Shown here: positions 1,397-41,502 of the stretch, piece by piece
Layout: each line of letters starts with the position of its first letter
How positions within the stretch are numbered: position 1 is the first letter of the stretch
Made by a program: the position numbers and the translations under genes
The notes under the pieces: model-generated
What the model saw: the letters and a program-made list of their open reading frames with translations, nothing else
Databases searched by the model: none
What the model was told of the DNA's origin: nothing
Assembly (NCBI GenBank): GCA_041748615.1
Contig: JBGTCY010000290.1
Location: forward strand, 1 to 53,612
Origin: Chitinophagales bacterium
GTDB lineage: Bacteria > Bacteroidota > Bacteroidia > Chitinophagales > CAIOSU01
Length of the DNA: 53,612 bases
Direction: 5' to 3'

Positions 1397-2685
1397 ATCC
1401 TGTTTCTTCTTTCATCAATCAACGGATTTCAATCCGCATTCCCGTATGGACACTGTTGCTGCTTCCATTTGTCTCCTACCTGTTATGGGAATTATTTTGG
1501 TATAAAACCGTAGGACTGCGCTTCATCGCATGGCACACTCACCTGATGGTGTTTGTGTACCTCTGGCTCTTGGGGTTTATCATGTTACGCATTCTTTTAA
1601 GGAAAAATTCATCTGCCTTTAAAAATTTTTTGCTGGCTTTCAGTTCTGTGATTTTCGCGCTGTTCATTGCGGAACTTTATCTTGAATTATCTGGCGTCAA
1701 TAAAACGTATTTAGAAAAAGTAGGTGGACGCTATTCAAGCCCTTATGCCCCCGGAACTCATACGCATTACCATACATGGCCTCCGCATCGGAAAGAACAT
1801 TGGATTGAAAAAAATGAATTCAGGTTTTGGCGACCCAATAATTCTTATGGCATTGGCGACCGGGAGTGGGAAATGAGCAAACAACCCGGTGAAATCAGAC
1901 TATTAGCTTTAGGCGATTCATTCACCGAAGGCGATGGAGCGCCTTACGATTCTTCTTATGTGGCGTTATTGGACACTTTGCTGAGGAAAAACGGTTTTCT
2001 AGTCTATACCATGAACGGAGGCGTCAGCGGCAGCGACCCTTTCTATGATTTCGTTCATCTGCGCGACAAGCTGCATGTTTACCATCCTGATATTATTCTG
2101 CAAAGCCTGAGTACGCAAGACATGACTACTGACATTATTTTGCGCGGAGGATTCGAGCGTTTTCTCGATGACAGAACAACCCGTTTCATACAGCCGCCCT
2201 GGTGGGAACCTCTTTATGCCATCAGCTATTTGAGCAGATTGTATTTTCATCATGAGGGATATACGGAGTTGTTGAGAAAAGAAAAATTAACACCGGAAGA
2301 GGAGCAACTTTTGAATAGGCAGCTTACAGAACTTTTTAGCCTGTATGCTGACTTCTGCACAGAGAAAAACATCAGGCTTATCGTCATGTTGAGACCGGAC
2401 AGCCGCGAGATAGAGCATCATGAGTATGAATATGATTTTACGGTTATCCTGAACGGTCTGCATTCAAATCCGCATATTGAGGTGATTGATTTATTGCCTG
2501 AATTCGTCAGTTACATACAATCCGGCAACACGCAGACAAAGGATTATTTCTGGAAATATGACGGACATCATAATCCTAAAGGCTACCTGATGATGGCAGA
2601 ATGTGTTTTTAATCAGTTAAAGGAGAGTATTTATGCATCACCTTCTTCATCCGAAGAAGTAAACGGTGAAAAATATTTTGATTAG
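1393..2685 (+). CDS. Membrane-anchored SGNH/GDSL-fold protein (paralog 1, long N-terminal TM type)
   Basis: LALGDSFTEG, NGGVSGSDP, DGHHN; three hydrophobic N-terminal segments; ATGA overlap with the radical SAM gene. Confidence 0.85.
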   Translation: MNPVSSFINQRISIRIPVWTLLLLPFVSYLLWELFWYKTVGLRFIAWHTHLMVFVYLWLLGFIMLRILLRKNSSAFKNFLLAFSSVIFALFIAELYLELSGVNKTYLEKVGGRYSSPYAPGTHTHYHTWPPHRKEHWIEKNEFRFWRPNNSYGIGDREWEMSKQPGEIRLLALGDSFTEGDGAPYDSSYVALLDTLLRKNGFLVYTMNGGVSGSDPFYDFVHLRDKLHVYHPDIILQSLSTQDMTTDIILRGGFERFLDDRTTRFIQPPWWEPLYAISYLSRLYFHHEGYTELLRKEKLTPEEEQLLNRQLTELFSLYADFCTEKNIRLIVMLRPDSREIEHHEYEYDFTVILNGLHSNPHIEVIDLLPEFVSYIQSGNTQTKDYFWKYDGHHNPKGYLMMAECVFNQLKESIYASPSSSEEVNGEKYFD

Positions 2686-2891
2686 CTATAGGTTAAATTT
2701 GGAAGCGTGAAAAATGCGTTGCAGGATGATATAAATAAAATTGGAGTGTTTGTAAATTTTTTTTTCTTCTCAAGAATTCATGCCAACAATAGCAACCTGT
2801 TGAAGCGGTCGGATGTTGTTTCTTAGAATATTTAGCATTAGATTTTTTTCTGAATGCCGGTGAATAGTAACATTCTATATTCAGAGCTTGA

Positions 2892-4229
2892 ATGAATAAA
2901 ATATTATTGTCATTTTTTGCTTTAGTTATCACGTTATTTCTGACGGAAGGATTGTTGCGTTTGTCGGGGAAGCAACCCGGTATATTCATGGATATGCAGG
3001 GATTTGAGGTAGTTGATTCGTTGATAGTTTATAAAAATTATATCACGGATGAAGCCGGTATTTACAAATTCAGTCCATGGATAACCGACTCGGTTTACAA
3101 ATATTACAATCGTGAAAAGCGCAGGTTGGAAAATCAAACGGTAAAAAACTATCTGAAAAAAGTAGATGATTTTTACTATATCTATGACAGCTATCATGCC
3201 TTACAGCGGCAACAAAAAAAACTCCCGTTGCGCTACCGGCTGACATATTTTTTCAGGGATGAAAACTGGGATTCTGAAATTGCGAATGTTTATCAAAAAA
3301 TTACTGATAAAGAAATACCTCCTGACGCCTGGGCAGAGGCAATAGCTGCTTACGTGGAAAAACCTTTCAACAATGAAGGGTTTCGCAGTATCGCTTTCGA
3401 ACAACACGTCACTGACAGACCCCGCATTCTGCTCATTGGCGATTCGTTTGTTTACGGTATGTCGGCTCAACCTTTTTTCAATAGTTTTTCCGACATCCTA
3501 CTATCGCGAGGTTACTTTATTTACAATGCCGGCATTCCGGGAACCGATCCCGCGCAGTATGAAGCGATTGCCAAAAAGTATATTCCTTTGCTGAAGCCGG
3601 ACTTGGTCATCGTGGTATTTTACTTGGGAAACGACCTGATGCACTTCCCGCGCGAACCGCACCCGCTTCATCCGCCCGAACACATGACCAATGCCGGTTT
3701 TTATGAAAGTCACTTATCCGGAAAATATCTCGATGCGCAGGCTGCATACGATTATTATCTTTCCCTGATTACAATTCCGGAACAGCAAAGCACATTTAAC
3801 AGGATTTGTTCTAAAACGGCTTTTACTACTTTGTTGTGGAGTGCATTGTATAAAATGAACCACGTGGAGCATGCCGAGTTGGAAAAATATATCAGCAAAA
3901 AGACAAATAATTATTACAATGCAATCGAATATACGCGCCCATATCTATCCCGAATACGTTCATTGGGTGTTCAGCATTCGATTCCGGTTTTGAATGTAGT
4001 AGTTCCCGATATCTATGAAAGTGTGAATGCAGGATTGCAGTTAGTAACGGTAAATACGGCAACTACCGATAATCTATTTGAAAACACAACCTATTTTTTT
4101 CCTGAGAACCTTGATAAAAGAACGGATTTTCATCAAGACAGTTGTCATTTCAATAACTCCGGCTCGCTTAAATATGCTGAATTTTTAGATAGTATTATAC
4201 GGACTGTTACGAGTATCCGCATCCCGTAA
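2892..4229 (+). CDS. SGNH/GDSL-fold protein (paralog 2, divergent)
   Basis: N-terminal TM; LLIGDSF, NAGIPG, YLGND, DSCHFN. Confidence 0.85.
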   Translation: MNKILLSFFALVITLFLTEGLLRLSGKQPGIFMDMQGFEVVDSLIVYKNYITDEAGIYKFSPWITDSVYKYYNREKRRLENQTVKNYLKKVDDFYYIYDSYHALQRQQKKLPLRYRLTYFFRDENWDSEIANVYQKITDKEIPPDAWAEAIAAYVEKPFNNEGFRSIAFEQHVTDRPRILLIGDSFVYGMSAQPFFNSFSDILLSRGYFIYNAGIPGTDPAQYEAIAKKYIPLLKPDLVIVVFYLGNDLMHFPREPHPLHPPEHMTNAGFYESHLSGKYLDAQAAYDYYLSLITIPEQQSTFNRICSKTAFTTLLWSALYKMNHVEHAELEKYISKKTNNYYNAIEYTRPYLSRIRSLGVQHSIPVLNVVVPDIYESVNAGLQLVTVNTATTDNLFENTTYFFPENLDKRTDFHQDSCHFNNSGSLKYAEFLDSIIRTVTSIRIP

Positions 4230-17851: not shown

Positions 17852-20629
17852 ATGAAGTCGAAAAAAATTAATTATACTCAAAAACTACGACTGCCGGATA
17901 ATAAAAGAAAGTGGCTGATATACGGAGCGCTTTTTCTTTTCGCATTTCTTCTCTATGGAAATACCATCAATCACGACTATAATCTTGACGATGAATTAGT
18001 AACAAGAAATCACAGGCTTACCAGTAAAGGAATTAGCGCCATTGCTGAAATATTTACTTCACCATATTACCAGGATGATTCCGGCTACTCTTATGAATAC
18101 CGTCCTGTTGTCTTGGTAAGTTTCGCATTGGAACACGAGTTGTTCGGGGATAACCCGAAAGCAAGTCATTTAATTAACGTCTTATTATATGCGATTACAG
18201 GAATCATTTTATTTATCCTGCTTACTAATTTATTCCCCAACTTGAATGTAATCTTTCCTGTTTCAGCAGTCCTGCTTTTTATTGCGCACCCAATGCATAC
18301 GGAAGTCGTTTCGAGTATCAAAAACAGAGATGAGATGCTTTCATTCCTTTTTGGAATACTGGCATTGAATTATATGGCTCGTACAATAAAATTTAACCTG
18401 CATATTAAATACATACTTGTTTTTTTCTTTCTTCTCCTAAGCCTGCTTTCAAAGACTTCCGGAATATTTCTATTGGGATTAATCCCTATCGTATTGATAT
18501 ACAAAAAAGAAGAAAAACTGAGTTTATTATATTCATTCTTCATAGTTGCCTTATTAACTGCAATAACCATCTATATCTCCAGCAGTAATATGCAAAATAT
18601 GAAGATGTTATTAACCGGTTTTACGGTTTACTATATTATTTTATATATTATATTCTATTTAAAATTAAATACGACTGTAATTGCCGGTTTCTTTACAAGA
18701 ATAAAAATGATAAAGGAACGAATAGGGTGGCCCGAATCAACCTTGTTGCATAAAACATCATTCAAAGAAATCACTCTTGGTAATTTACTGTTTTATCTTT
18801 TATTTATAGCAATATTTACTTTGTTTGTCAAATACAGCATGTATATCGGCTCTGTGCCGGCATTGATATTATTGATATTTTATCCCTTTTATTCCCGCTT
18901 AATCAGATATGACATTATTATTCTTACAATTGTTGCATTTATAATATTTTACATTTTTTCCCCATTAGATATGCTTACGGAGGCAATTTTTTATATTGTT
19001 GCACTATATTTAATAATAATAAATATATATTTAAATAAAAACAATAAAAAACAATTGGTTTTGGTTATCATTTTTTTAATGGCGTTATCATGCATTGCTA
19101 TTTATTTAAGGTTTAATGAATTTCAAACGGTTATAGGATATTTATTCCTAATTATAATAGTGAGCTTACTAATATATATAATAAAAAAATACAAATACAA
19201 ATGGCTTTATATCCCCTTTCTTCATATGATTTTTACATCTTTTATAGATATTGTTTTATACTTTCATCTGTACGAATTGAATGTTTTTTCATTTTATATT
19301 TTATCTTACATTTTATTTTTAACCAAATATCGTTCGAATGCTAAAGCATCCTTATTGTTAATTTCAATTTCTCTCTCGTTTGTTTTATGCATAAATGTTG
19401 TGCATAAAAACATCATGCTTAATAAATCCCCTGAACATATCGAATTAAAAAGGTTGCATGAGGAAAAGATGAAAAATACTCCTCCATCAGAAGTAAAGAT
19501 TGAAGAACCAAAGGATAATTACTTCTTTAATATGGATCGCCCGCTCGATTTTGTCGAATATCCTTTGGGTTTTAATGCTTCTATGGAGGTAAGAATAGCC
19601 ACGTCCGCATATATTTTAGGCGAGTACCTGAAGCTGCTTATTATTCCGCACCCTATGGGATTCTATTATGGCTATGCTCATATTGTACCTGTTGGTATCA
19701 GGAATCCTCAAGCCTCAATTTCATTAATAATATATTTTACACTTCTGATTATTAGTCTTTTATTAATAAAAAAGCATCCTGGTCTATGTCTTGGCATTTT
19801 GTTCTATTTATTCTCCATTGCAGTTTATACTAACTTAATACAGCCTGTTGCCGGTATGATGGCGGATCGTTTTACCTATGCTGCCAGTTTTGGTTTTTGC
19901 ATCGCAATAACTTACGCCCTACTCAATCTTTTCAAAATAGATATATCAAAAAATGCTCCGCTGAAATTAAAGCCTGCATTTACTGTTGTTTTGGTTTTAA
20001 TCCTCAGTTCATATTCTTACCTGACCATCGCCCGAAACGCGCTCTGGAAAGACCACCTGACATTAATGCGGCATGACATCGGACATCTTGATAAATCCGC
20101 GCAGGCACATAATCTGCTGGCTTCTAACCTGATGAAATATTCTTATCAAAATGAATATTCTAAAGACGCTTTTTCGATGAGAAAGGAAGCGCTTGGTCAC
20201 TTCAAAAGGGCAGTTGAGATTTATCCCGGTTTTTTTAACGCCTGGTATGACCTGGGCAGAACTTATATGATTCTCAATCATCCCGACAGCGCCTTCCATT
20301 GTTTTGTGAGAGTACATGAAATGGATTCCACTTTTTCTGATGCCACCATTAATATTGCTACCATTGCAGAGCAAAGAAATGATTTCAATACCGCTATCAA
20401 ATATTATGAAAGATTATTGAAAGCTCAACCTGATTATTACACTGCTTACACGAATCTCAGTTATCTCTATTTCAGGTTGAATCAGCCTGAAAAGTCTATT
20501 GAAACTAATCAACGGGCAATCAAAATTTTCCCGACCTGGCGCGACCCGTATGAAAATATTGCGCGGGTTTACATTTCTCAAGGTGATACACTGTCGGCTC
20601 AGGAATTTTTGAAAAACGCTCCGCGCTAA
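17852..20629 (+). CDS. TMTC-like GT-C glycosyltransferase with C-terminal TPRs
   Basis: YNLDD acidic pair after TM1, YRP, HLINVLL, HPMHTEVV, ADRFTY, RNALWKD, then TPR-like helices. Confidence 0.8.
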   Translation: MKSKKINYTQKLRLPDNKRKWLIYGALFLFAFLLYGNTINHDYNLDDELVTRNHRLTSKGISAIAEIFTSPYYQDDSGYSYEYRPVVLVSFALEHELFGDNPKASHLINVLLYAITGIILFILLTNLFPNLNVIFPVSAVLLFIAHPMHTEVVSSIKNRDEMLSFLFGILALNYMARTIKFNLHIKYILVFFFLLLSLLSKTSGIFLLGLIPIVLIYKKEEKLSLLYSFFIVALLTAITIYISSSNMQNMKMLLTGFTVYYIILYIIFYLKLNTTVIAGFFTRIKMIKERIGWPESTLLHKTSFKEITLGNLLFYLLFIAIFTLFVKYSMYIGSVPALILLIFYPFYSRLIRYDIIILTIVAFIIFYIFSPLDMLTEAIFYIVALYLIIINIYLNKNNKKQLVLVIIFLMALSCIAIYLRFNEFQTVIGYLFLIIIVSLLIYIIKKYKYKWLYIPFLHMIFTSFIDIVLYFHLYELNVFSFYILSYILFLTKYRSNAKASLLLISISLSFVLCINVVHKNIMLNKSPEHIELKRLHEEKMKNTPPSEVKIEEPKDNYFFNMDRPLDFVEYPLGFNASMEVRIATSAYILGEYLKLLIIPHPMGFYYGYAHIVPVGIRNPQASISLIIYFTLLIISLLLIKKHPGLCLGILFYLFSIAVYTNLIQPVAGMMADRFTYAASFGFCIAITYALLNLFKIDISKNAPLKLKPAFTVVLVLILSSYSYLTIARNALWKDHLTLMRHDIGHLDKSAQAHNLLASNLMKYSYQNEYSKDAFSMRKEALGHFKRAVEIYPGFFNAWYDLGRTYMILNHPDSAFHCFVRVHEMDSTFSDATINIATIAEQRNDFNTAIKYYERLLKAQPDYYTAYTNLSYLYFRLNQPEKSIETNQRAIKIFPTWRDPYENIARVYISQGDTLSAQEFLKNAPR

Positions 20630-20787: not shown

Positions 20788-23700
20788 ATGATGATGAGAA
20801 AACTTTCATGCTTACTGTTCGCTTTTACCGGTATCTTATTTACGCTTGAATCCAATGCGCAATGTCCTGCTTTTCCACCCGGAACCGTTGGGATTTATCC
20901 TGATCTGGATTCTTTAGCTTGCATTCCGAATGACAGCTCACAATATTCAGAGTACATCTCGGTGATAAGTCCCGATTCGTCATCCGGCATCATTTATCTG
21001 ATACTTGACAGCATTGTTGGCCTGCCGGATGGAATCAGTTGGAGCTTAGATGTTCCATTCGGAAATCCCCCTAACCGTTTGAACGCGGGTGATTCCGGCT
21101 GTCTCAATATTTTTGGAGCAACTAAAGATACTACCGGCATTTATGTGACTGAGATTTTTGTGACTGTACTCACGAACATCGTACCTTTTCCAATTTCCAG
21201 TGAACTCAATCAATTATTGGCAATCAATAGTTTTCCTCCGGTAGGCACCTCTGTCAAAGTATGCGCACCCTGTCCTGCAACCAGTTTGACGCTGACTCCG
21301 GCAGATGTTAGTTGTTTAAGAGCGGATGACGGCAGTATCACCGCAAGCGCAAGCGGAGGTGATGCTCCCTATTCATACAGTTGGTCAAACGGAAGCACAG
21401 GGGAAACAATTCAAGGTCTGGCTGCGGGGAGTTATACTGCCACAGTGAGCGATGCCAACGGATGTACCGCAACAGCTTCGGCAACCGTCAATCAACCTTC
21501 AGAATTATCGGCAAGCATCACTTCATTAACCGATGAATCCGGTTGTGGTGCATTGGATGGCGCAGCTACAGTTTCAGCCTCTGGTGGAACCGGTTTGATT
21601 TCTTATGAATGGTCAACCGGGGCAACCGGTACATCAGTGACCAACCTTTCTGCAGGAAGTTATTTCGTAGTAGCCGAAGATGAAAACGGCTGTAACGATA
21701 CCGCGAGAGTGAACATTGCAAGATTAGACTCAGTGCTGATTTCCGTTGTGTCAACGGATGTTTCCGTTTGTGGTGGTGCTGATGGCTCGGCAACAGCATC
21801 AGCCAGCAATGGCGTTTCACCTTATTCTTTTGCATGGTCGAGTGGCAGCACGGATAGTGTTGCAAACAACCTTTCTGTGGGAACCTACACCGTCACGGTT
21901 ACCGATTCCACCGGATGCCAGTCAACAGCTATTGCATTCATCGGTCAACCCGGAAATATCCTTGTTGCTGTTGATTCATTTAAAAATGTAAGTTGTTTTG
22001 ATTTTACGGACGGAAGTATTTCCGTATCTGCAAGCGGAGGCAATGCTCCCTATAATTTTGCATGGTCGAATGGCGGTTCGGGCGAAACGCTTCAAAATCT
22101 TGCAGCAGGCAGTTATACCGTTACCGCTTCTGACGCAGGCGGATGTACTGCAACCGCAACCCAGGTAATTGCTCAACCAACAATCTTGCTTGTTTCTATT
22201 GATTCCGTAAAAGACATTTCCTGCAATGGCGGGAATGATGGCTCTGTTTCAATCTCTGCTTCAGGCGGTACAGCGTCCTATCAATTCAACTGGTCGAACA
22301 GCGCGACAAGCGCCAGTCTTTCAAATCTCACTGCCGGAGATTACATTTTTACTGTGACAGACGCGCAGGGATGTATTTTAACTGATTCTGTTTCACTCAC
22401 GGAACCACCGGCATTATTTGCCTCATCTACTCCCACAAATACTTCTTTTGCGGGCGGCACTGACGGATCCGTTAATGTAACTGCCGGAGGTGGAACACCG
22501 CCTTATAATTATTCATGGACAACTGGCGCTACTACCCAGAATTTAAGCGGAGTGGCAGCCGGAAATTATGAGGTGACCGTAACGGATGCCAATGGTTGCA
22601 CAGTTGTAACCGGAGCCAGCGTGAGCGACCCGGCAGCATCATTTTCTATTTCATTAACTGCCGCGTCTGTGCGCTGCAATGGTGAATCAAATGGTTCAGT
22701 CTCTTCCTCATTGAGCGGAGGCGCGCCACCGTTTTCTTACAGTTGGTCAAATGGTTCCTCTACTCAGAATTTATTGGGTGTTGCTGCCGGAAATTATTCT
22801 GTAACGGTAACCGATCTTGATGGAATCACCGCCACCGCATCAACCACGGTGAGTCAACCCGCAGTACTTTCCGCAACCACTTCTGTGACGGATGTTTCCT
22901 GCAATGCCGGGAATGACGGCAGCATCAATGTGACGCCAGCCGGAGGAAATCCACCCTATAATTATCTCTGGTCAAATGGCTCCACTTTAGCCACAAGAAG
23001 TAATCTGACAGCAGGAAATTATTCTGTTGTGATTACAGATGATAAAGGATGTAATACAGTTGTTTCAGCGAATGTATCTCAACCCACTACAATCGTGCTT
23101 GCATTTATTTCAACTGATGCCACTACTGCGGCAGGTTCAGATGGCTCGATTGATTTAACAGTTTCCGGGGGTGTAGGTCCTTACACTTTTCTTTGGTCGA
23201 ATGCTGATACAACTGAAGATATTAATAATCTGACAGCCGGAGTTTATACAGTGACGGTTACCGATAGTAATAGCTGCACAAAAACCGGAAGCGCACCGGT
23301 GGGTGACCCTTCTCAAATGCGGATTGTAGCGGTAGCGGAAAATGTCAGTTGCAATGGAAGCAGTGACGGCTCTGTGACATTAACGGTTACCGGGGGTGTT
23401 CCGCCTTACGGTTTTTCATGGTCAAATAGCGCGACTACACAAAATTTAAGCAATGTCCCTGCCGGCAGCTACACGGTATTGGTTTCTGATGCCGGAAGTT
23501 TGACAGAAACTACAACAGTTGTCGTGAATGAACCTGCGGCAGTTTCTTTGAATATTACCGTCATCAATGCCACATGCATTCCCGATGGTTCAGCCGCTGT
23601 CAGTGTCAGCGGAGGAACTCCTCCTTATTCTTACAACTGGTCATCGGGTTCAGCCGTTGAAATCGCAGGTAATTTATCAGCAGGAGATTATTTTGTTACT

Positions 23701-24504
23701 GTGACGGATGGCGAAGGTTGTTCGATATTAGATACCGCAACTGTGCTTGCCTCAGATCCGATTGTACTTGCCTCTACGGTAACTCCTGCCTCCGTTGCCG
23801 GAGCTTCCGATGGAGCGATTGTGTTGAGCGTAACCGGTGGAACCGCGCCATATTCCTACGCATGGTCGAATGGAGCTTCAACCAAAGACCTTTCAGGATT
23901 GACAGTGGGAACATATACCGTAGTTGTAACGGATGACAACGGATGTACGGCTACCGCTTCAGCAACGGTCAATGATGGCGCGGCTGGTTGCAACTTAGGC
24001 GTTGGTGAAATCAGTGGTGAACCTTATCCGTTTGAAAGTACCACCCGTTACTATTCCATTTTATTTAACCCAGCCTACACCTATCAATGGACGATTGACA
24101 ACGGGCAAATCAATTTCGGGCAAGGTTCCGGTTTGGTGAATGTTACCTGGGGTGGTAATGGTCCCGGATTTTTGGAGGTAATCGTGAGCGATGGCTCCTG
24201 CTTTGATACGGTTTCGCTTAACATAGGAGTGCCGGTGATTGATGTGTTATCAGACCTAAATTTTATCATTTATCCCAATCCGAATCAGGGACAGTTTACG
24301 TTAAAATTTAACGGGCAAACAACCGTTGTTGAAAGAATTGAAATCATCAATCTGCTTGGAAGAGTGGTGGCGAATGTGCCGGTTAGTCCGGGTGTTCAGG
24401 ATAATTTACTGCATCTTTACGCTGACCTGAATGGTGGAATTTATTTTGTACAGTTGGTGAGTGATGGTCAGGTCTTCAGAAAAAGATTTGTTGTAGCGGA
24501 ATGA
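20788..24504 (+). CDS. T9SS type-A cargo adhesin with 12 SprB-type repeats
   Basis: Signal peptide (SNAQ); 12 copies of DGS..SASGG.PY.Y.WS...L.AG.Y.V.V.D..GC; C-terminal IYPNPNQG...GIYFV sorting domain. Confidence 0.88.
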   Translation: MMMRKLSCLLFAFTGILFTLESNAQCPAFPPGTVGIYPDLDSLACIPNDSSQYSEYISVISPDSSSGIIYLILDSIVGLPDGISWSLDVPFGNPPNRLNAGDSGCLNIFGATKDTTGIYVTEIFVTVLTNIVPFPISSELNQLLAINSFPPVGTSVKVCAPCPATSLTLTPADVSCLRADDGSITASASGGDAPYSYSWSNGSTGETIQGLAAGSYTATVSDANGCTATASATVNQPSELSASITSLTDESGCGALDGAATVSASGGTGLISYEWSTGATGTSVTNLSAGSYFVVAEDENGCNDTARVNIARLDSVLISVVSTDVSVCGGADGSATASASNGVSPYSFAWSSGSTDSVANNLSVGTYTVTVTDSTGCQSTAIAFIGQPGNILVAVDSFKNVSCFDFTDGSISVSASGGNAPYNFAWSNGGSGETLQNLAAGSYTVTASDAGGCTATATQVIAQPTILLVSIDSVKDISCNGGNDGSVSISASGGTASYQFNWSNSATSASLSNLTAGDYIFTVTDAQGCILTDSVSLTEPPALFASSTPTNTSFAGGTDGSVNVTAGGGTPPYNYSWTTGATTQNLSGVAAGNYEVTVTDANGCTVVTGASVSDPAASFSISLTAASVRCNGESNGSVSSSLSGGAPPFSYSWSNGSSTQNLLGVAAGNYSVTVTDLDGITATASTTVSQPAVLSATTSVTDVSCNAGNDGSINVTPAGGNPPYNYLWSNGSTLATRSNLTAGNYSVVITDDKGCNTVVSANVSQPTTIVLAFISTDATTAAGSDGSIDLTVSGGVGPYTFLWSNADTTEDINNLTAGVYTVTVTDSNSCTKTGSAPVGDPSQMRIVAVAENVSCNGSSDGSVTLTVTGGVPPYGFSWSNSATTQNLSNVPAGSYTVLVSDAGSLTETTTVVVNEPAAVSLNITVINATCIPDGSAAVSVSGGTPPYSYNWSSGSAVEIAGNLSAGDYFVTVTDGEGCSILDTATVLASDPIVLASTVTPASVAGASDGAIVLSVTGGTAPYSYAWSNGASTKDLSGLTVGTYTVVVTDDNGCTATASATVNDGAAGCNLGVGEISGEPYPFESTTRYYSILFNPAYTYQWTIDNGQINFGQGSGLVNVTWGGNGPGFLEVIVSDGSCFDTVSLNIGVPVIDVLSDLNFIIYPNPNQGQFTLKFNGQTTVVERIEIINLLGRVVANVPVSPGVQDNLLHLYADLNGGIYFVQLVSDGQVFRKRFVVAE
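21283..23976 (+). repeat. Twelve tandem ~75-aa SprB-type coding repeats
   Basis: Repeats counted directly in the translation; degenerate at DNA level. Confidence 0.85.
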
Positions 24505-38745: not shown

Positions 38746-41502
38746 TTGTTGCGCGGTTTTATTCATATCTATTTTCTTGCGTGTTTTGGAATCCTCCTCA
38801 TTCCGGAGTTAGCTCATGCTACACACAACCGCGCAGGCGAAATTCAATATGAGGTCATTTCTTATCTCCGTTATCGCGTTACGATTATCACCTACACAAA
38901 AGCAAGCAGTGTTCAGGCTGACAGGGATACCTTAAATCTGAATTGGGGAGACAGCACACCGATTGAAAAAGTATTGCGCGTCAATGGTCCGATTGGAACC
39001 AATGGTGTGCCGCAGGGTGAAATTTTAGGGAATGACGTGAAAAAAAATATCTACCGTTCAGGCATTCATGCGTATGCCGGTCCGTTGCCGTTTTATATTA
39101 TTTCCGTTGCCGACCCAAACAGGATTTCAAACATCATCAACATCAACGGGGGCGCGTCAGTGAATGTGCAGTTTTATCTTGAAGACACGCTGCGCATTTT
39201 GAATCCCACATTTGTCGGATTAAACAGTTCGCCCATTCTGCTTTATCCCCCGATTGACTACGCCAATGTGAATGACACATTTTATCACAACCCGGCAGCC
39301 TTCGACCCGGATGGTGACAGCCTCGTTTTTACGCTCACCACTCCGTTTCAGGCAGCAGGATTTCCGGTTCCGAATTATCAATATCCCGACCAGGTCAGCC
39401 CCGGAATCAACAATCAGTTTACCATCAATTCACGAACGGGTGAAATTATCTGGGCAACCCCGCAGCGCGTGGGAATTTATAATATCGCCATCTTGATTAC
39501 TGAATATCGCAACGGGATAAAACTCGGCACCATGTTGCGCGACATGCAGATTATTGTGAATGATGAGCCGAACAATCCTCCGCGCATCACCGAGTTCGCG
39601 GATACCTGTGTGGTGGCTGGTACTCTATTAGTGCGAAATGTGAACGCTTTTGACCCCAACCCGGGTCAATCTGTTACGCTGTCAGCCGAAGGAGGTCCGT
39701 TGAGAATAGACATCAGCCCGGCAACATTCTCCGCGCAACCTCCCGGCAATCCGGTCTCCGGGCAATTCCGGTGGCAAACGACTTGTAATCATATCAGGAA
39801 GGAATTTTACCAGGTGGTGTTTAAAGCGCAGGATAATTATCCATTCGTTCCGCTTGTGGATTTGAAAACGTGGATTGTGAGAGTGGTGGCTCCGGCACCG
39901 GAAAATCTGCAATCACAGGCGATGGGCAACAGCATCACGCTCACCTGGAATCAACCCTATCATTGCGACAGCGTGAGTGATTTCATCGGGTTTTCCGTTT
40001 GGAGAAGGGAAGGTTCCAATCCATTCACGATGGATACGTGCGAGGTTGGACTGGCAGGAAAAGGTTACACGAAAATTGCGGAGAATGTCACGGCATTTAC
40101 TTACACGGATAATAATTTAAATCGCGGCAGGCTTTATTGTTACCGCATCCTGGCTGAATTCGCAAAGCGCACACAGTCAGGATTGTTTTATAATAAAGTG
40201 GAAAGTCTTCCTTCCAACGAAACCTGCGCGGAATTGAAACGCGACTTGCCCATCATCAAAAATGTCAGCGTAGAAACAACGGATGTTACCAATGGTGAAA
40301 TGTTTGTCTCCTGGTATCGCCCGATAGCGTCTCCTGATAATTTAGATACATTGCAGCTTTCCGGTCCTTACAGTTACAAACTTTATCGTTCCGTTGGATT
40401 TACGGGAGCTAATCTTATTGAAGTCGCCACTTTTACCAATCCCTTTTTTGGTAATTTATTGGATACCGTTTTTACGGATACCCAACTGAACACGGTGGAC
40501 AACGCCTATTCTTATTTAGTTAAATTTTTTGCCAACAATCTGGAAGTAGGAGAGAGTGATCTTGCTTCTTCTGTGTATCTCACGATTGGAGCGAATGACA
40601 AACGCCTTGAACTTTCGTGGGAGGAAAATGTGCCCTGGGAAAATTATGAATATGTTGTTTTCAAAAGAAATGAACTGGGCGTTTTTGATTCCATTGCCAC
40701 GGTGACGACTCAGGAATATACCGATGATGATTTAATCAATGATTCATTGTATTGCTACTACATCAAAAGCGTAGGAGAATATTCATCCTCTGATTTGAAT
40801 GAAACGCTTTTTAATCTTTCGCAACAGCGATGCGAGCGACCGATTGATACGATTCCGCCTTGTCCGCCAATCTTAAGAGTGGAAAACAGTTGTAACGAAG
40901 TGACGGATGGTGATGTGTGCGCTTCCGGTCCCGAAGCTTTTCAAAACCGTTTGATTTGGGAAAACAGACGAACCGGTGAATGCTTTCCTGACGAAATAGA
41001 AAAGTATTACATCTATTATTCAAAGCCGGGCGAAAATGATTTCGCTTTGCTTGACAGCGTGCTGAATGCATCCGATACAACTTACGCCCATTTAAATGAA
41101 AAATCACTCGCGGGTTGTTACGCGGTGACAGCGTTTGACAGTACCGGCAATGAAAGCGCGTTCAGCAACATTATTTGTGTGGACAATTGTCCCTGTTACA
41201 AATTGCCGAACGTGTTCACTCCGAACAATGACGGCAGAAACGATTTTTTCACCCCCATTCTGCCTTATCGCTATGTGGACCGGGTGGACATGAAAATTTA
41301 CAATCGCTGGGGAACGCTTGTTTATGAAACCACCGACCCTGAAATCCGCTGGGACGGCAGGGATATCAATAATGGAAAAGATTTGCCGGAAGGCGTCTAT
41401 TATTATGTCTGCGAAGTGTATGAAATCCGGGTGGATGGCGTGCGAAAAAATTCAAACATCCTGAATGGGTATATTCATTTGATTAAGGGGTTTAAGCCTT
41501 GA
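38746..41502 (+). CDS. T9SS type-B cargo (gliding-motility-associated C-terminal domain)
   Basis: AHATHNRAGEI N-terminus, FnIII-like modules, C-terminal LPNVFTPNNDGRND...IYNRWG..WDG..GVYYY; TTG start. Confidence 0.85.
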   Translation: MLRGFIHIYFLACFGILLIPELAHATHNRAGEIQYEVISYLRYRVTIITYTKASSVQADRDTLNLNWGDSTPIEKVLRVNGPIGTNGVPQGEILGNDVKKNIYRSGIHAYAGPLPFYIISVADPNRISNIININGGASVNVQFYLEDTLRILNPTFVGLNSSPILLYPPIDYANVNDTFYHNPAAFDPDGDSLVFTLTTPFQAAGFPVPNYQYPDQVSPGINNQFTINSRTGEIIWATPQRVGIYNIAILITEYRNGIKLGTMLRDMQIIVNDEPNNPPRITEFADTCVVAGTLLVRNVNAFDPNPGQSVTLSAEGGPLRIDISPATFSAQPPGNPVSGQFRWQTTCNHIRKEFYQVVFKAQDNYPFVPLVDLKTWIVRVVAPAPENLQSQAMGNSITLTWNQPYHCDSVSDFIGFSVWRREGSNPFTMDTCEVGLAGKGYTKIAENVTAFTYTDNNLNRGRLYCYRILAEFAKRTQSGLFYNKVESLPSNETCAELKRDLPIIKNVSVETTDVTNGEMFVSWYRPIASPDNLDTLQLSGPYSYKLYRSVGFTGANLIEVATFTNPFFGNLLDTVFTDTQLNTVDNAYSYLVKFFANNLEVGESDLASSVYLTIGANDKRLELSWEENVPWENYEYVVFKRNELGVFDSIATVTTQEYTDDDLINDSLYCYYIKSVGEYSSSDLNETLFNLSQQRCERPIDTIPPCPPILRVENSCNEVTDGDVCASGPEAFQNRLIWENRRTGECFPDEIEKYYIYYSKPGENDFALLDSVLNASDTTYAHLNEKSLAGCYAVTAFDSTGNESAFSNIICVDNCPCYKLPNVFTPNNDGRNDFFTPILPYRYVDRVDMKIYNRWGTLVYETTDPEIRWDGRDINNGKDLPEGVYYYVCEVYEIRVDGVRKNSNILNGYIHLIKGFKP

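Follow-up and report, generated by a model that had tools for sequence, protein, structure and literature searches.

Covariation across a repeat family points to an interleaved ladder of inter-domain disulfides in a SprB-repeat surface protein of a Chitinophagales bacterium

Introduction

SprB, the gliding-motility adhesin of Flavobacterium johnsoniae and the source of the repeat family PF13573, is a protein of 6497 amino acids (aa) that carries a type B C-terminal domain (CTD) and depends on its cognate SprF. The same repeat family, export by the type IX secretion system (T9SS) and a Bacteroidota host are found again in the product of an open reading frame (ORF) on a 53,612-nucleotide stretch of DNA from a Chitinophagales bacterium (NCBI GenBank assembly GCA_041748615.1, contig JBGTCY010000290.1, positions 1 to 53,612 of the forward strand; hereafter the window). 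This ORF, at positions 20788-24504, is the subject of the present report. A second described system is GhpA, the grappling-hook protein of Aureispira sp. CCB-QB1 (PDB 9flp, 9fls, 9flw and 9flx), in which cryo-electron microscopy (cryoEM) revealed many intramolecular disulfides that join neighbouring immunoglobulin-like (Ig-like) domains, such as C2988-C3140 (bioRxiv 10.1101/2024.01.29.577165). As a T9SS cargo composed of tandem Ig-like domains, GhpA resembles the ORF product. Decoration domains of phages, namely pb10 of phage T5 (PDB 5lxk and 8zvi) and Hoc of phage RB49 (3shs), have the same Ig-like core, 'GG.xPYtYxW ... aGsYxVtVtD'.

An earlier reading of the window made from its letters only (the sequence-only reading) had proposed that the two cysteines of each repeat, termed C1 and C2, pair between consecutive repeats and that a programmed flexible joint occurs every third domain. 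The first proposal is backed by joint presence and absence of the two cysteines across junctions in two large sets of homologous repeats, by the lack of association between them within a repeat and by direct coupling analysis (DCA). The best explanation, to which we give a probability of about 0.8, is that the ORF encodes an exported SprB-repeat rod in which disulfides connect C1 of domain n with C2 of domain n+1, hereafter C1(n)-C2(n+1), rather than two cysteines of the same domain. Such an inter-repeat ladder is very probably right and family-wide. The second proposal fared less well, and is weighed below against a rival account of the junctions that lack the cysteine pair.

Results

Matched cysteine losses across the junctions of the ORF

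The array comprises 12 repeats of 73-76 aa, spanning aa 163-1064, and is embedded in the following features, where a predicted C1(n)-C2(n+1) bond is called a staple and a junction that lacks both cysteines is called unstapled.

20788-24504 (+): the whole ORF, 1238 aa, a T9SS type A cargo with SprB repeats, by Pfam and NCBIfam matches
20788-20859 (+): predicted Sec signal peptide (MMMRKLSCLLFAFTGILFTLESNA / Q after cleavage), as read from the translation
20860-21273 (+): N-terminal domain, aa 25-162, with cysteines 26, 45, 105, 159 and 162; no family match
21274-22632 (+): repeats R1-R6, aa 163-615, with predicted staples C176-C302, C253-C377, C328-C453, C403-C529 and C479-C604
22447-22827 (+): unstapled junction 6/7, with F554 in place of C1(6) and I680 in place of C2(7); linker SDP
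22633-23310 (+): repeats R7-R9, aa 616-841, with predicted staples C630-C755 and C705-C830
23125-23502 (+): unstapled junction 9/10, with T780 in place of C1(9) and L905 in place of C2(10); linker GDP
23311-23979 (+): repeats R10-R12, aa 842-1064, with predicted staples C855-C978 and C930-C1053; V1003 in place of C1 in R12
23980-24267 (+): 13th beta-sandwich domain, aa 1065-1160, with a linker-type C1068 and a C2-like C1138 ('VSDGSC')
24268-24495 (+): T9SS type A C-terminal sorting domain, aa 1161-1236, by Pfam and NCBIfam

C1 is present at aa 176, 253, 328, 403, 479, 630, 705, 855 and 930, being substituted by F554, T780 and V1003 in R6, R9 and R12, respectively. C2 is present at aa 226, 302, 377, 453, 529, 604, 755, 830, 978 and 1053, with I680 and L905 taking its place in R7 and R10. 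Re-translation thus agreed exactly with the sequence-only reading, which had C1 missing in repeats 6, 9 and 12 and C2 missing in repeats 7 and 10, and the five motifs it had quoted for these sites translate as given (NTSFAGG at 22438, DATTAAG at 23116, PASVAGA at 23785, DLDGI at 22813 and DAGSL at 23488). Its count of five cysteines that would be stranded by pairing within repeats also holds (C604, C630, C830, C855 and C1053). Two of its statements stood in part. C1(n)-C2(n+1) pairing was said to cover every presence and absence, and the losses do match between repeats, but C226, the C2 of repeat 1, is left without a repeat partner; repeat 12 was said to lack C1 as the last repeat, and V1003 is indeed in place there, but a 13th Ig/PKD-like domain comes after it. 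With the three C1 losses taken as given, two randomly placed C2 losses would hit precisely repeats 7 and 10 with a probability of about 1/66. The match within this one protein is suggestive, and becomes overwhelming only with the family data added.

C1 and C2 covary across junctions and not within repeats

Two sets of homologous repeats were assembled. For set 1, a hidden Markov model was built from the 12 repeats of the ORF, and 120 homologues drawn from a 5.8-billion-protein collection were segmented to give 2134 adjacent repeat pairs (junctions). Set 2 consists of 150 independent giant representatives of 50%-identity clusters with 4770 junctions, taken from a profile search of 1.84 billion cluster representatives that returned 135,395 matches at E <= 0.001. 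In set 1, both C1(n) and C2(n+1) were present at 2089 junctions and both were absent at 21, while C1(n) occurred without its partner at 3 and C2(n+1) without its partner at 21 (odds ratio ~700, phi 0.66, p 7e-36). The corresponding numbers in set 2 were 4688, 62, 10 and 10 (odds ratio ~2900, phi 0.86, p 1e-119). The sequence-only reading had named independent variation of C1(n) and C2(n+1) in large alignments as the outcome that would speak against it; what both sets show is tight linkage.

A disulfide between C1 and C2 of the same repeat, leaving the five odd cysteines of the ORF free or mis-paired, is the default expectation for an Ig-like repeat with two cysteines, and 2448 of the 2582 scored repeats in set 1 carry both. 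However, presence of C1 and presence of C2 in the same repeat were not associated (phi -0.01 in set 1 and 0.005 in set 2), and both cysteines had been lost together in only 1 of 134 defective repeats in set 1 and 4 of 285 in set 2. Together with a DCA score of about 0 for this pair and a coevolution pattern that assigns C1 to one pole of the sandwich and C2 to the other (see below), these values make the intra-domain bond hardly credible. The reverse pairing across a junction, C2(n)-C1(n+1), was rejected as well, with a phi of -0.03 in set 1; a weak signal of this type in set 2 stems from proteins in which every second junction is unstapled.

The cysteines could also be unbonded, that is free, metal-binding or modified by a lipid or thioether, with their joint loss reflecting shared duplication history only, and block copying of repeats does inflate the raw counts. 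When the C2 states were shuffled within each protein of set 1, double absences averaged 3 and never exceeded 9 in 2000 trials, whereas 21 were observed. Clustering of the 83 double losses from both sets yielded 19 clusters at 50% identity and 55 at 60%, and the signal is therefore not that of one event copied many times. The protein is moreover extracytoplasmic, at least 19 sequence-distinct double-loss clusters stand beside almost no uncompensated single losses, a linker cysteine substitutes for a lost C1 beside the same C2, and neighbour-domain disulfides are seen by cryoEM in GhpA. On this evidence, we consider unbonded cysteines very unlikely.

The junctions that break the rule are informative in this respect. 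Where C2(n+1) was present and C1(n) was missing, a cysteine in the n/n+1 linker was found in 19 of 21 cases in set 1 (for example NEPGC, NDSSC and APPDC) and in 7 of 10 cases in set 2, and the two exceptions of this kind among paralogues in the same genome have a linker cysteine too. Given these exceptions, C2 would find a cysteine to pair with at its domain's N-terminal pole either way, whether in the A-B loop of the previous domain or where strand A of its own domain begins. Several of the junctions with C1(n) and no C2(n+1) have a second cysteine inside the A-B loop, as in NATCFSC. Three set 2 proteins, P0133, P0137 and P0204, have A-B loops with two cysteines three residues apart (NATCFSC, NNNCYNC and QANCFGC, respectively), which fall where the next repeat is without C2; such variants look like a local loop disulfide in place of the inter-domain staple. 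The ends of the arrays behave as inter-repeat pairing predicts, since C1 is missing in 16 of 61 last repeats versus 43 of 2144 internal ones, and C2 is missing in 9 of 67 array-first repeats, including repeats that come straight after a signal peptide.

Coevolution assigns C1 and C2 to opposite poles of the repeat

Mean-field DCA in the zero-sum gauge was run on non-redundant, gap-poor consecutive repeat pairs, with an effective number of sequences of ~1090 for set 1 and ~2210 for set 2. C1(n)-C2(n+1) ranked 7th among all couplings in set 1 and 3rd in set 2, and it was the top inter-repeat coupling, several-fold over any other inter-repeat pair. The intra-repeat couplings outline the fold: strands A and G run parallel (7-70, 9-72 and 12-74), and A-B, B-E and F-G pair antiparallel. 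Couplings 18-50 and 15-74 bring the A-B loop next to the E-F turn and to the C-terminal linker of the same repeat, respectively, and the B-C loop contacts the F-G turn (29-60 and 30-62). C1 is therefore located at the C-terminal pole of the domain and C2 at the opposite, N-terminal one, and the contact map confirms the general placement of the A-B loop and the F-G turn that the sequence-only reading had given for Ig-like sandwiches. With such a placement, a bond between C1 and C2 of one domain is implausible on steric grounds, and one that spans the junction would be natural.

AlphaFold2 (AF2) models were used for confidence and secondary structure, whereas spatial contacts were taken from the coevolution map. 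The model of R5-R8 reached a predicted local distance difference test score (pLDDT) of 96.7 and a predicted template modelling score (pTM) of 0.69, and that of R8-R11 a pLDDT of 94.2 and a pTM of 0.60. Six DSSP strands were assigned per repeat at pLDDT 94-97, with C1 in the loop behind strand A and C2 as the last residue ahead of the final strand. The parallel A/G pair and the termini at opposite poles are those of an Ig-like beta-sandwich, which is the fold modelled for the repeat.

The predicted disulfide ladder and its two ends

Under the favoured explanation, the A-B loop of domain n would present C1 at the C-terminal pole, and this C1 would bond to the residue that ends the F-G turn of domain n+1, C2, which lies at the N-terminal pole. 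The result would be an interleaved ladder of nine inter-domain disulfides. At the N-terminal cap, C226 of repeat 1 is predicted to pair with C162 or C159 of the N-terminal domain, in the motif 'VKVCAPCP' upstream of the interval considered by the sequence-only reading; these candidates are proposed because of cysteine parity and the linker-cysteine variants in homologues. The C-terminal cap, at the junction of R12 and domain 13, is predicted to be a C1068-C1138 bond within the 13th domain, as a linker-cysteine variant of the staple, and this variant is also found in homologues. With both caps, all 26 cysteines of the mature protein could be paired under the ladder scheme. We infer that disulfide formation takes place in the periplasm, ahead of export, and that the rod is stiffened or mechanically locked by the ladder.

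Several points weigh against this explanation. Repeats within one protein are not independent, and the true number of loss events is well below the raw counts, although it is still far above the ~2 expected by chance. A few exceptions remain uncompensated: set 1 has about 2 with C2(n+1) only and 3 with C1(n) only, and set 2 has a handful. The oxidised state of the cysteines is itself deduced, the geometry of the bond is built from coevolution contacts and AF2 secondary structure, and the mapping of the GhpA bond onto the same scheme, given below, is arithmetic on alignment coordinates and not a displayed alignment.

Unstapled junctions as hinges or as tolerated decay

Unstapled junctions amount to about 1% in the family (21 of 2134 in set 1 and 62 of 4770 in set 2), while the ORF has two among its 11 junctions (18%), 6/7 and 9/10. 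The sequence-only reading took them for programmed hinges, in which the loss of a staple and a switch of the linker to DP mark a designed flexible joint every third domain in the distal half of the rod. Both junctions are indeed DP and unstapled, DP is enriched at the unstapled junctions of set 1 (5 of 21, versus 35 of 2089 stapled ones), and a spacing of three between successive unstapled junctions is the commonest one in that set (7 of 11 cases). However, all five of these DP cases come from two proteins, DP was found at 0 of 62 unstapled versus 110 of 4688 stapled junctions in set 2, and the 11/12 linker of the ORF is DP as well ('LASDP') though both cysteines are present there. The DP linker was therefore rejected as a general mark of unstapled junctions. 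Nor is the spacing specifically three: set 1 also contains spacings of 4, 5 and 6 (2 cases of the last), set 2 has spacings of 2 (15), 3 (10), 4 (3), 5 (7) and 6 (2), and the pooled numbers are 15, 17, 4, 8 and 4 for spacings of 2 to 6, which follow super-repeat duplication. As to location, cargo with a type A CTD is attached via its C-terminus, and the unstapled junctions, in the C-terminal half, therefore lie in the cell-proximal half of the rod and not in the distal one. The dips in model confidence at the two junctions are only small (pLDDT 87-91). Taken together, programmed hinges appear quite unlikely.

We lean, with some reserve, towards an account in which the staples are real and the two unstapled junctions represent tolerated decay rather than selected hinges: one cysteine would be lost, its orphan partner purged, and the loss then copied by super-repeat duplication. 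The rarity of unstapled junctions and their variable spacings fit such a route. P0006 and P0076 combine a period-3 pattern of unstapled junctions with clear period-3 super-repeats, and the identity between repeats of the ORF shows a faint bump at offsets 3 and 6. The residue pairs that replace the cysteines, F/I and T/L here and G/Y and A/I in relatives, look like packing substitutes, and these hydrophobic or complementary pairs could keep the interface packed; both junctions of the ORF still have a pLDDT of at least 87. On the other side, the rate of 2 in 11 is well over that of the family, and regular patterns in relatives, such as that of P0152, where every second junction is unstapled, could mean selection for segmented rods. 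Both AF2 models also have their pLDDT minimum at exactly these junction elements: in R5-R8 the lowest block (87) is directly after the 6/7 linker, and in R8-R11 the lowest blocks are the A-B loop of R9 that lacks its cysteine (88-90) and the 9/10 linker (90-91). The lower pLDDT, the lost staple and the rate of loss are a hint of extra freedom, and junctions 6/7 and 9/10 are probably somewhat less constrained than the others.

Regular patterns were seen in several members of the two sets. In P0152 (set 2) the staple is missing at junctions 2, 4, ... 26, P0133 (set 2) shows an unstapled rhythm of 5-5-3-3-5, P0258 (set 2) is also among the members with regular patterns, and P0002 (set 1) has the linker-cysteine variant at every second junction (2, 4, ... 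16). This suggests two-domain or multi-domain structural units. One could go further and propose for the whole family that the signature cysteines never act within a domain, that the ladder makes the stalks mechanically unextendable, and that paired removal of rungs (at spacings of 2, 3 and 5 in some members, at 6/7 and 9/10 here) has been selected to set the bending of T9SS fibres; this is a speculative extension that we rate as rather unlikely.

Gene product and genome context

The Pfam SprB family PF13573 matched the ORF with 395.5 bits in 12 stretches (cut-off 28), which places its repeats in the SprB repeat family. The type A CTD was matched by NCBIfam TIGR04183 (85.6 bits, cut-off 23) and by Pfam Por_Secre_tail (PF18962; 71.1 bits, cut-off 27) at aa 1161-1236. 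For the N-terminal domain, a Pfam search of aa 25-162 gave no match even at E <= 1, and the 13th domain showed a weak PKD_6 match (E 0.0026) below the cut-off. The source genome is 97.7% complete in 330 contigs and encodes the T9SS translocon SprA (SprA_N, 559 bits, on a 2485-aa ORF). The best explanation of these matches is that the gene product is a cell-surface protein, exported by Sec and the T9SS, with a stalk that is a rod of 12 SprB-type Ig-like domains; the gene is an ordinary one for a secreted Bacteroidota surface protein. The N-terminal domain is presumably the outermost part, and the binding specificity of the protein is probably decided there. The label 'adhesin' for the product is an assumption. 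SprB-type repeats number 374 in 67 ORFs across the genome.

The upstream neighbour of the ORF encodes a TPR protein and the downstream one an RNaseH-like protein; neither was assigned as sprF-like, though no search aimed at sprF was made. The upstream ORF encodes 925 aa (window positions 17852-20629, +) with TPR repeats at its C-terminal end, and the AT content of the window peaks inside it (GC 0.31 at 18001-20000). If a glycosyltransferase, its product might modify the Ser/Thr-rich repeats, a possibility raised because the domains of GhpA are all glycosylated. The window holds a second T9SS cargo, with a type B CTD (TIGR04131, 55 bits) at 41200-41427 (+) within a 930-aa open frame.

Discussion

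Few building blocks of Bacteroidota surface proteins are as common as SprB-type repeats, as the 135,395 cluster representatives found at E <= 0.001 attest, and a pairing rule between their domains would bear on several kinds of work. A construct of a single repeat, or a fragment cut at a repeat boundary, would hold orphan cysteines. In models of export, a covalently laddered rod must cross the T9SS in a folded state. As to the mechanics of gliding adhesins and hooks, such rods would be expected to withstand unfolding by force. The positions along a stalk that have no staple can be read from sequence alone.

Compared with SprB, the ORF product belongs to the same repeat family but is only 1238 aa in length and ends in a type A CTD. 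The ORF was rejected as a SprB orthologue on both grounds, being too short and having a type A rather than a type B CTD; TIGR04131, the type B CTD model, gave 42 matches in the genome and none at 20788-24504. The largest SprB-repeat paralogue in the genome is a 3416-aa ORF on contig C129; it has 31 repeats, ends in a type B CTD (C129:4275-4526) and is the better candidate for a true SprB-like gliding adhesin. No description of the cysteine pairing rule for SprB was found in the searchable literature.

Among solved structures, sequence searches led only to the Ig-like decoration domains of phages (E 2e-6 to 1e-4). They differ from the repeats in that pb10 and Hoc have no C1/C2 cysteines, no staples and a longer C-C' region, and they decorate viral capsids rather than forming cell-surface stalks.

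A Foldseek search with the AF2 model returned four GhpA cryoEM fragments as the top matches (E 2e-10 to 9e-10, TM score 0.4-0.5, 20-22% identity). By sequence, a profile of the single repeat matched GhpA at E 0.008 via the F-G hairpin 'aGsYtvtvtDanGC', a marginal similarity confined to the C-terminal half of the repeat, and a profile of its N-terminal half did not reach GhpA in the PDB. GhpA also differs in size, with 5898 aa in 52 repeats and domains of ~83 aa, and in architecture, having a heptameric hollow stem and a hook-shaped N-terminus. In the region ~1915-3726 of GhpA, profile matches recur exactly 249 residues apart (1915/2164/2413 and 3172/3421/3670), and this part of GhpA is therefore built of super-repeats of three domains; three is also the commonest super-period among SprB-type proteins.

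The profile match places F-G cysteines of GhpA at 1301, 1385, 1551, 1634 and 1716, with a period of ~83, and the coordinates of later stretches place further ones at ~2961 and ~3222. C2988 is 27 residues past 2961, and the spacing from C2(n) to C1(n+1) in the ORF is 25-27; C3140 is 82 residues ahead of 3222, which is one domain period. From these spacings, the C2988-C3140 bond would most simply be of the C1(m)-C2(m+1) type. The predicted inter-domain staple of the SprB-type repeats is not a new kind of feature, and it extends and generalises a principle that is already visible in the cryoEM structure of GhpA.

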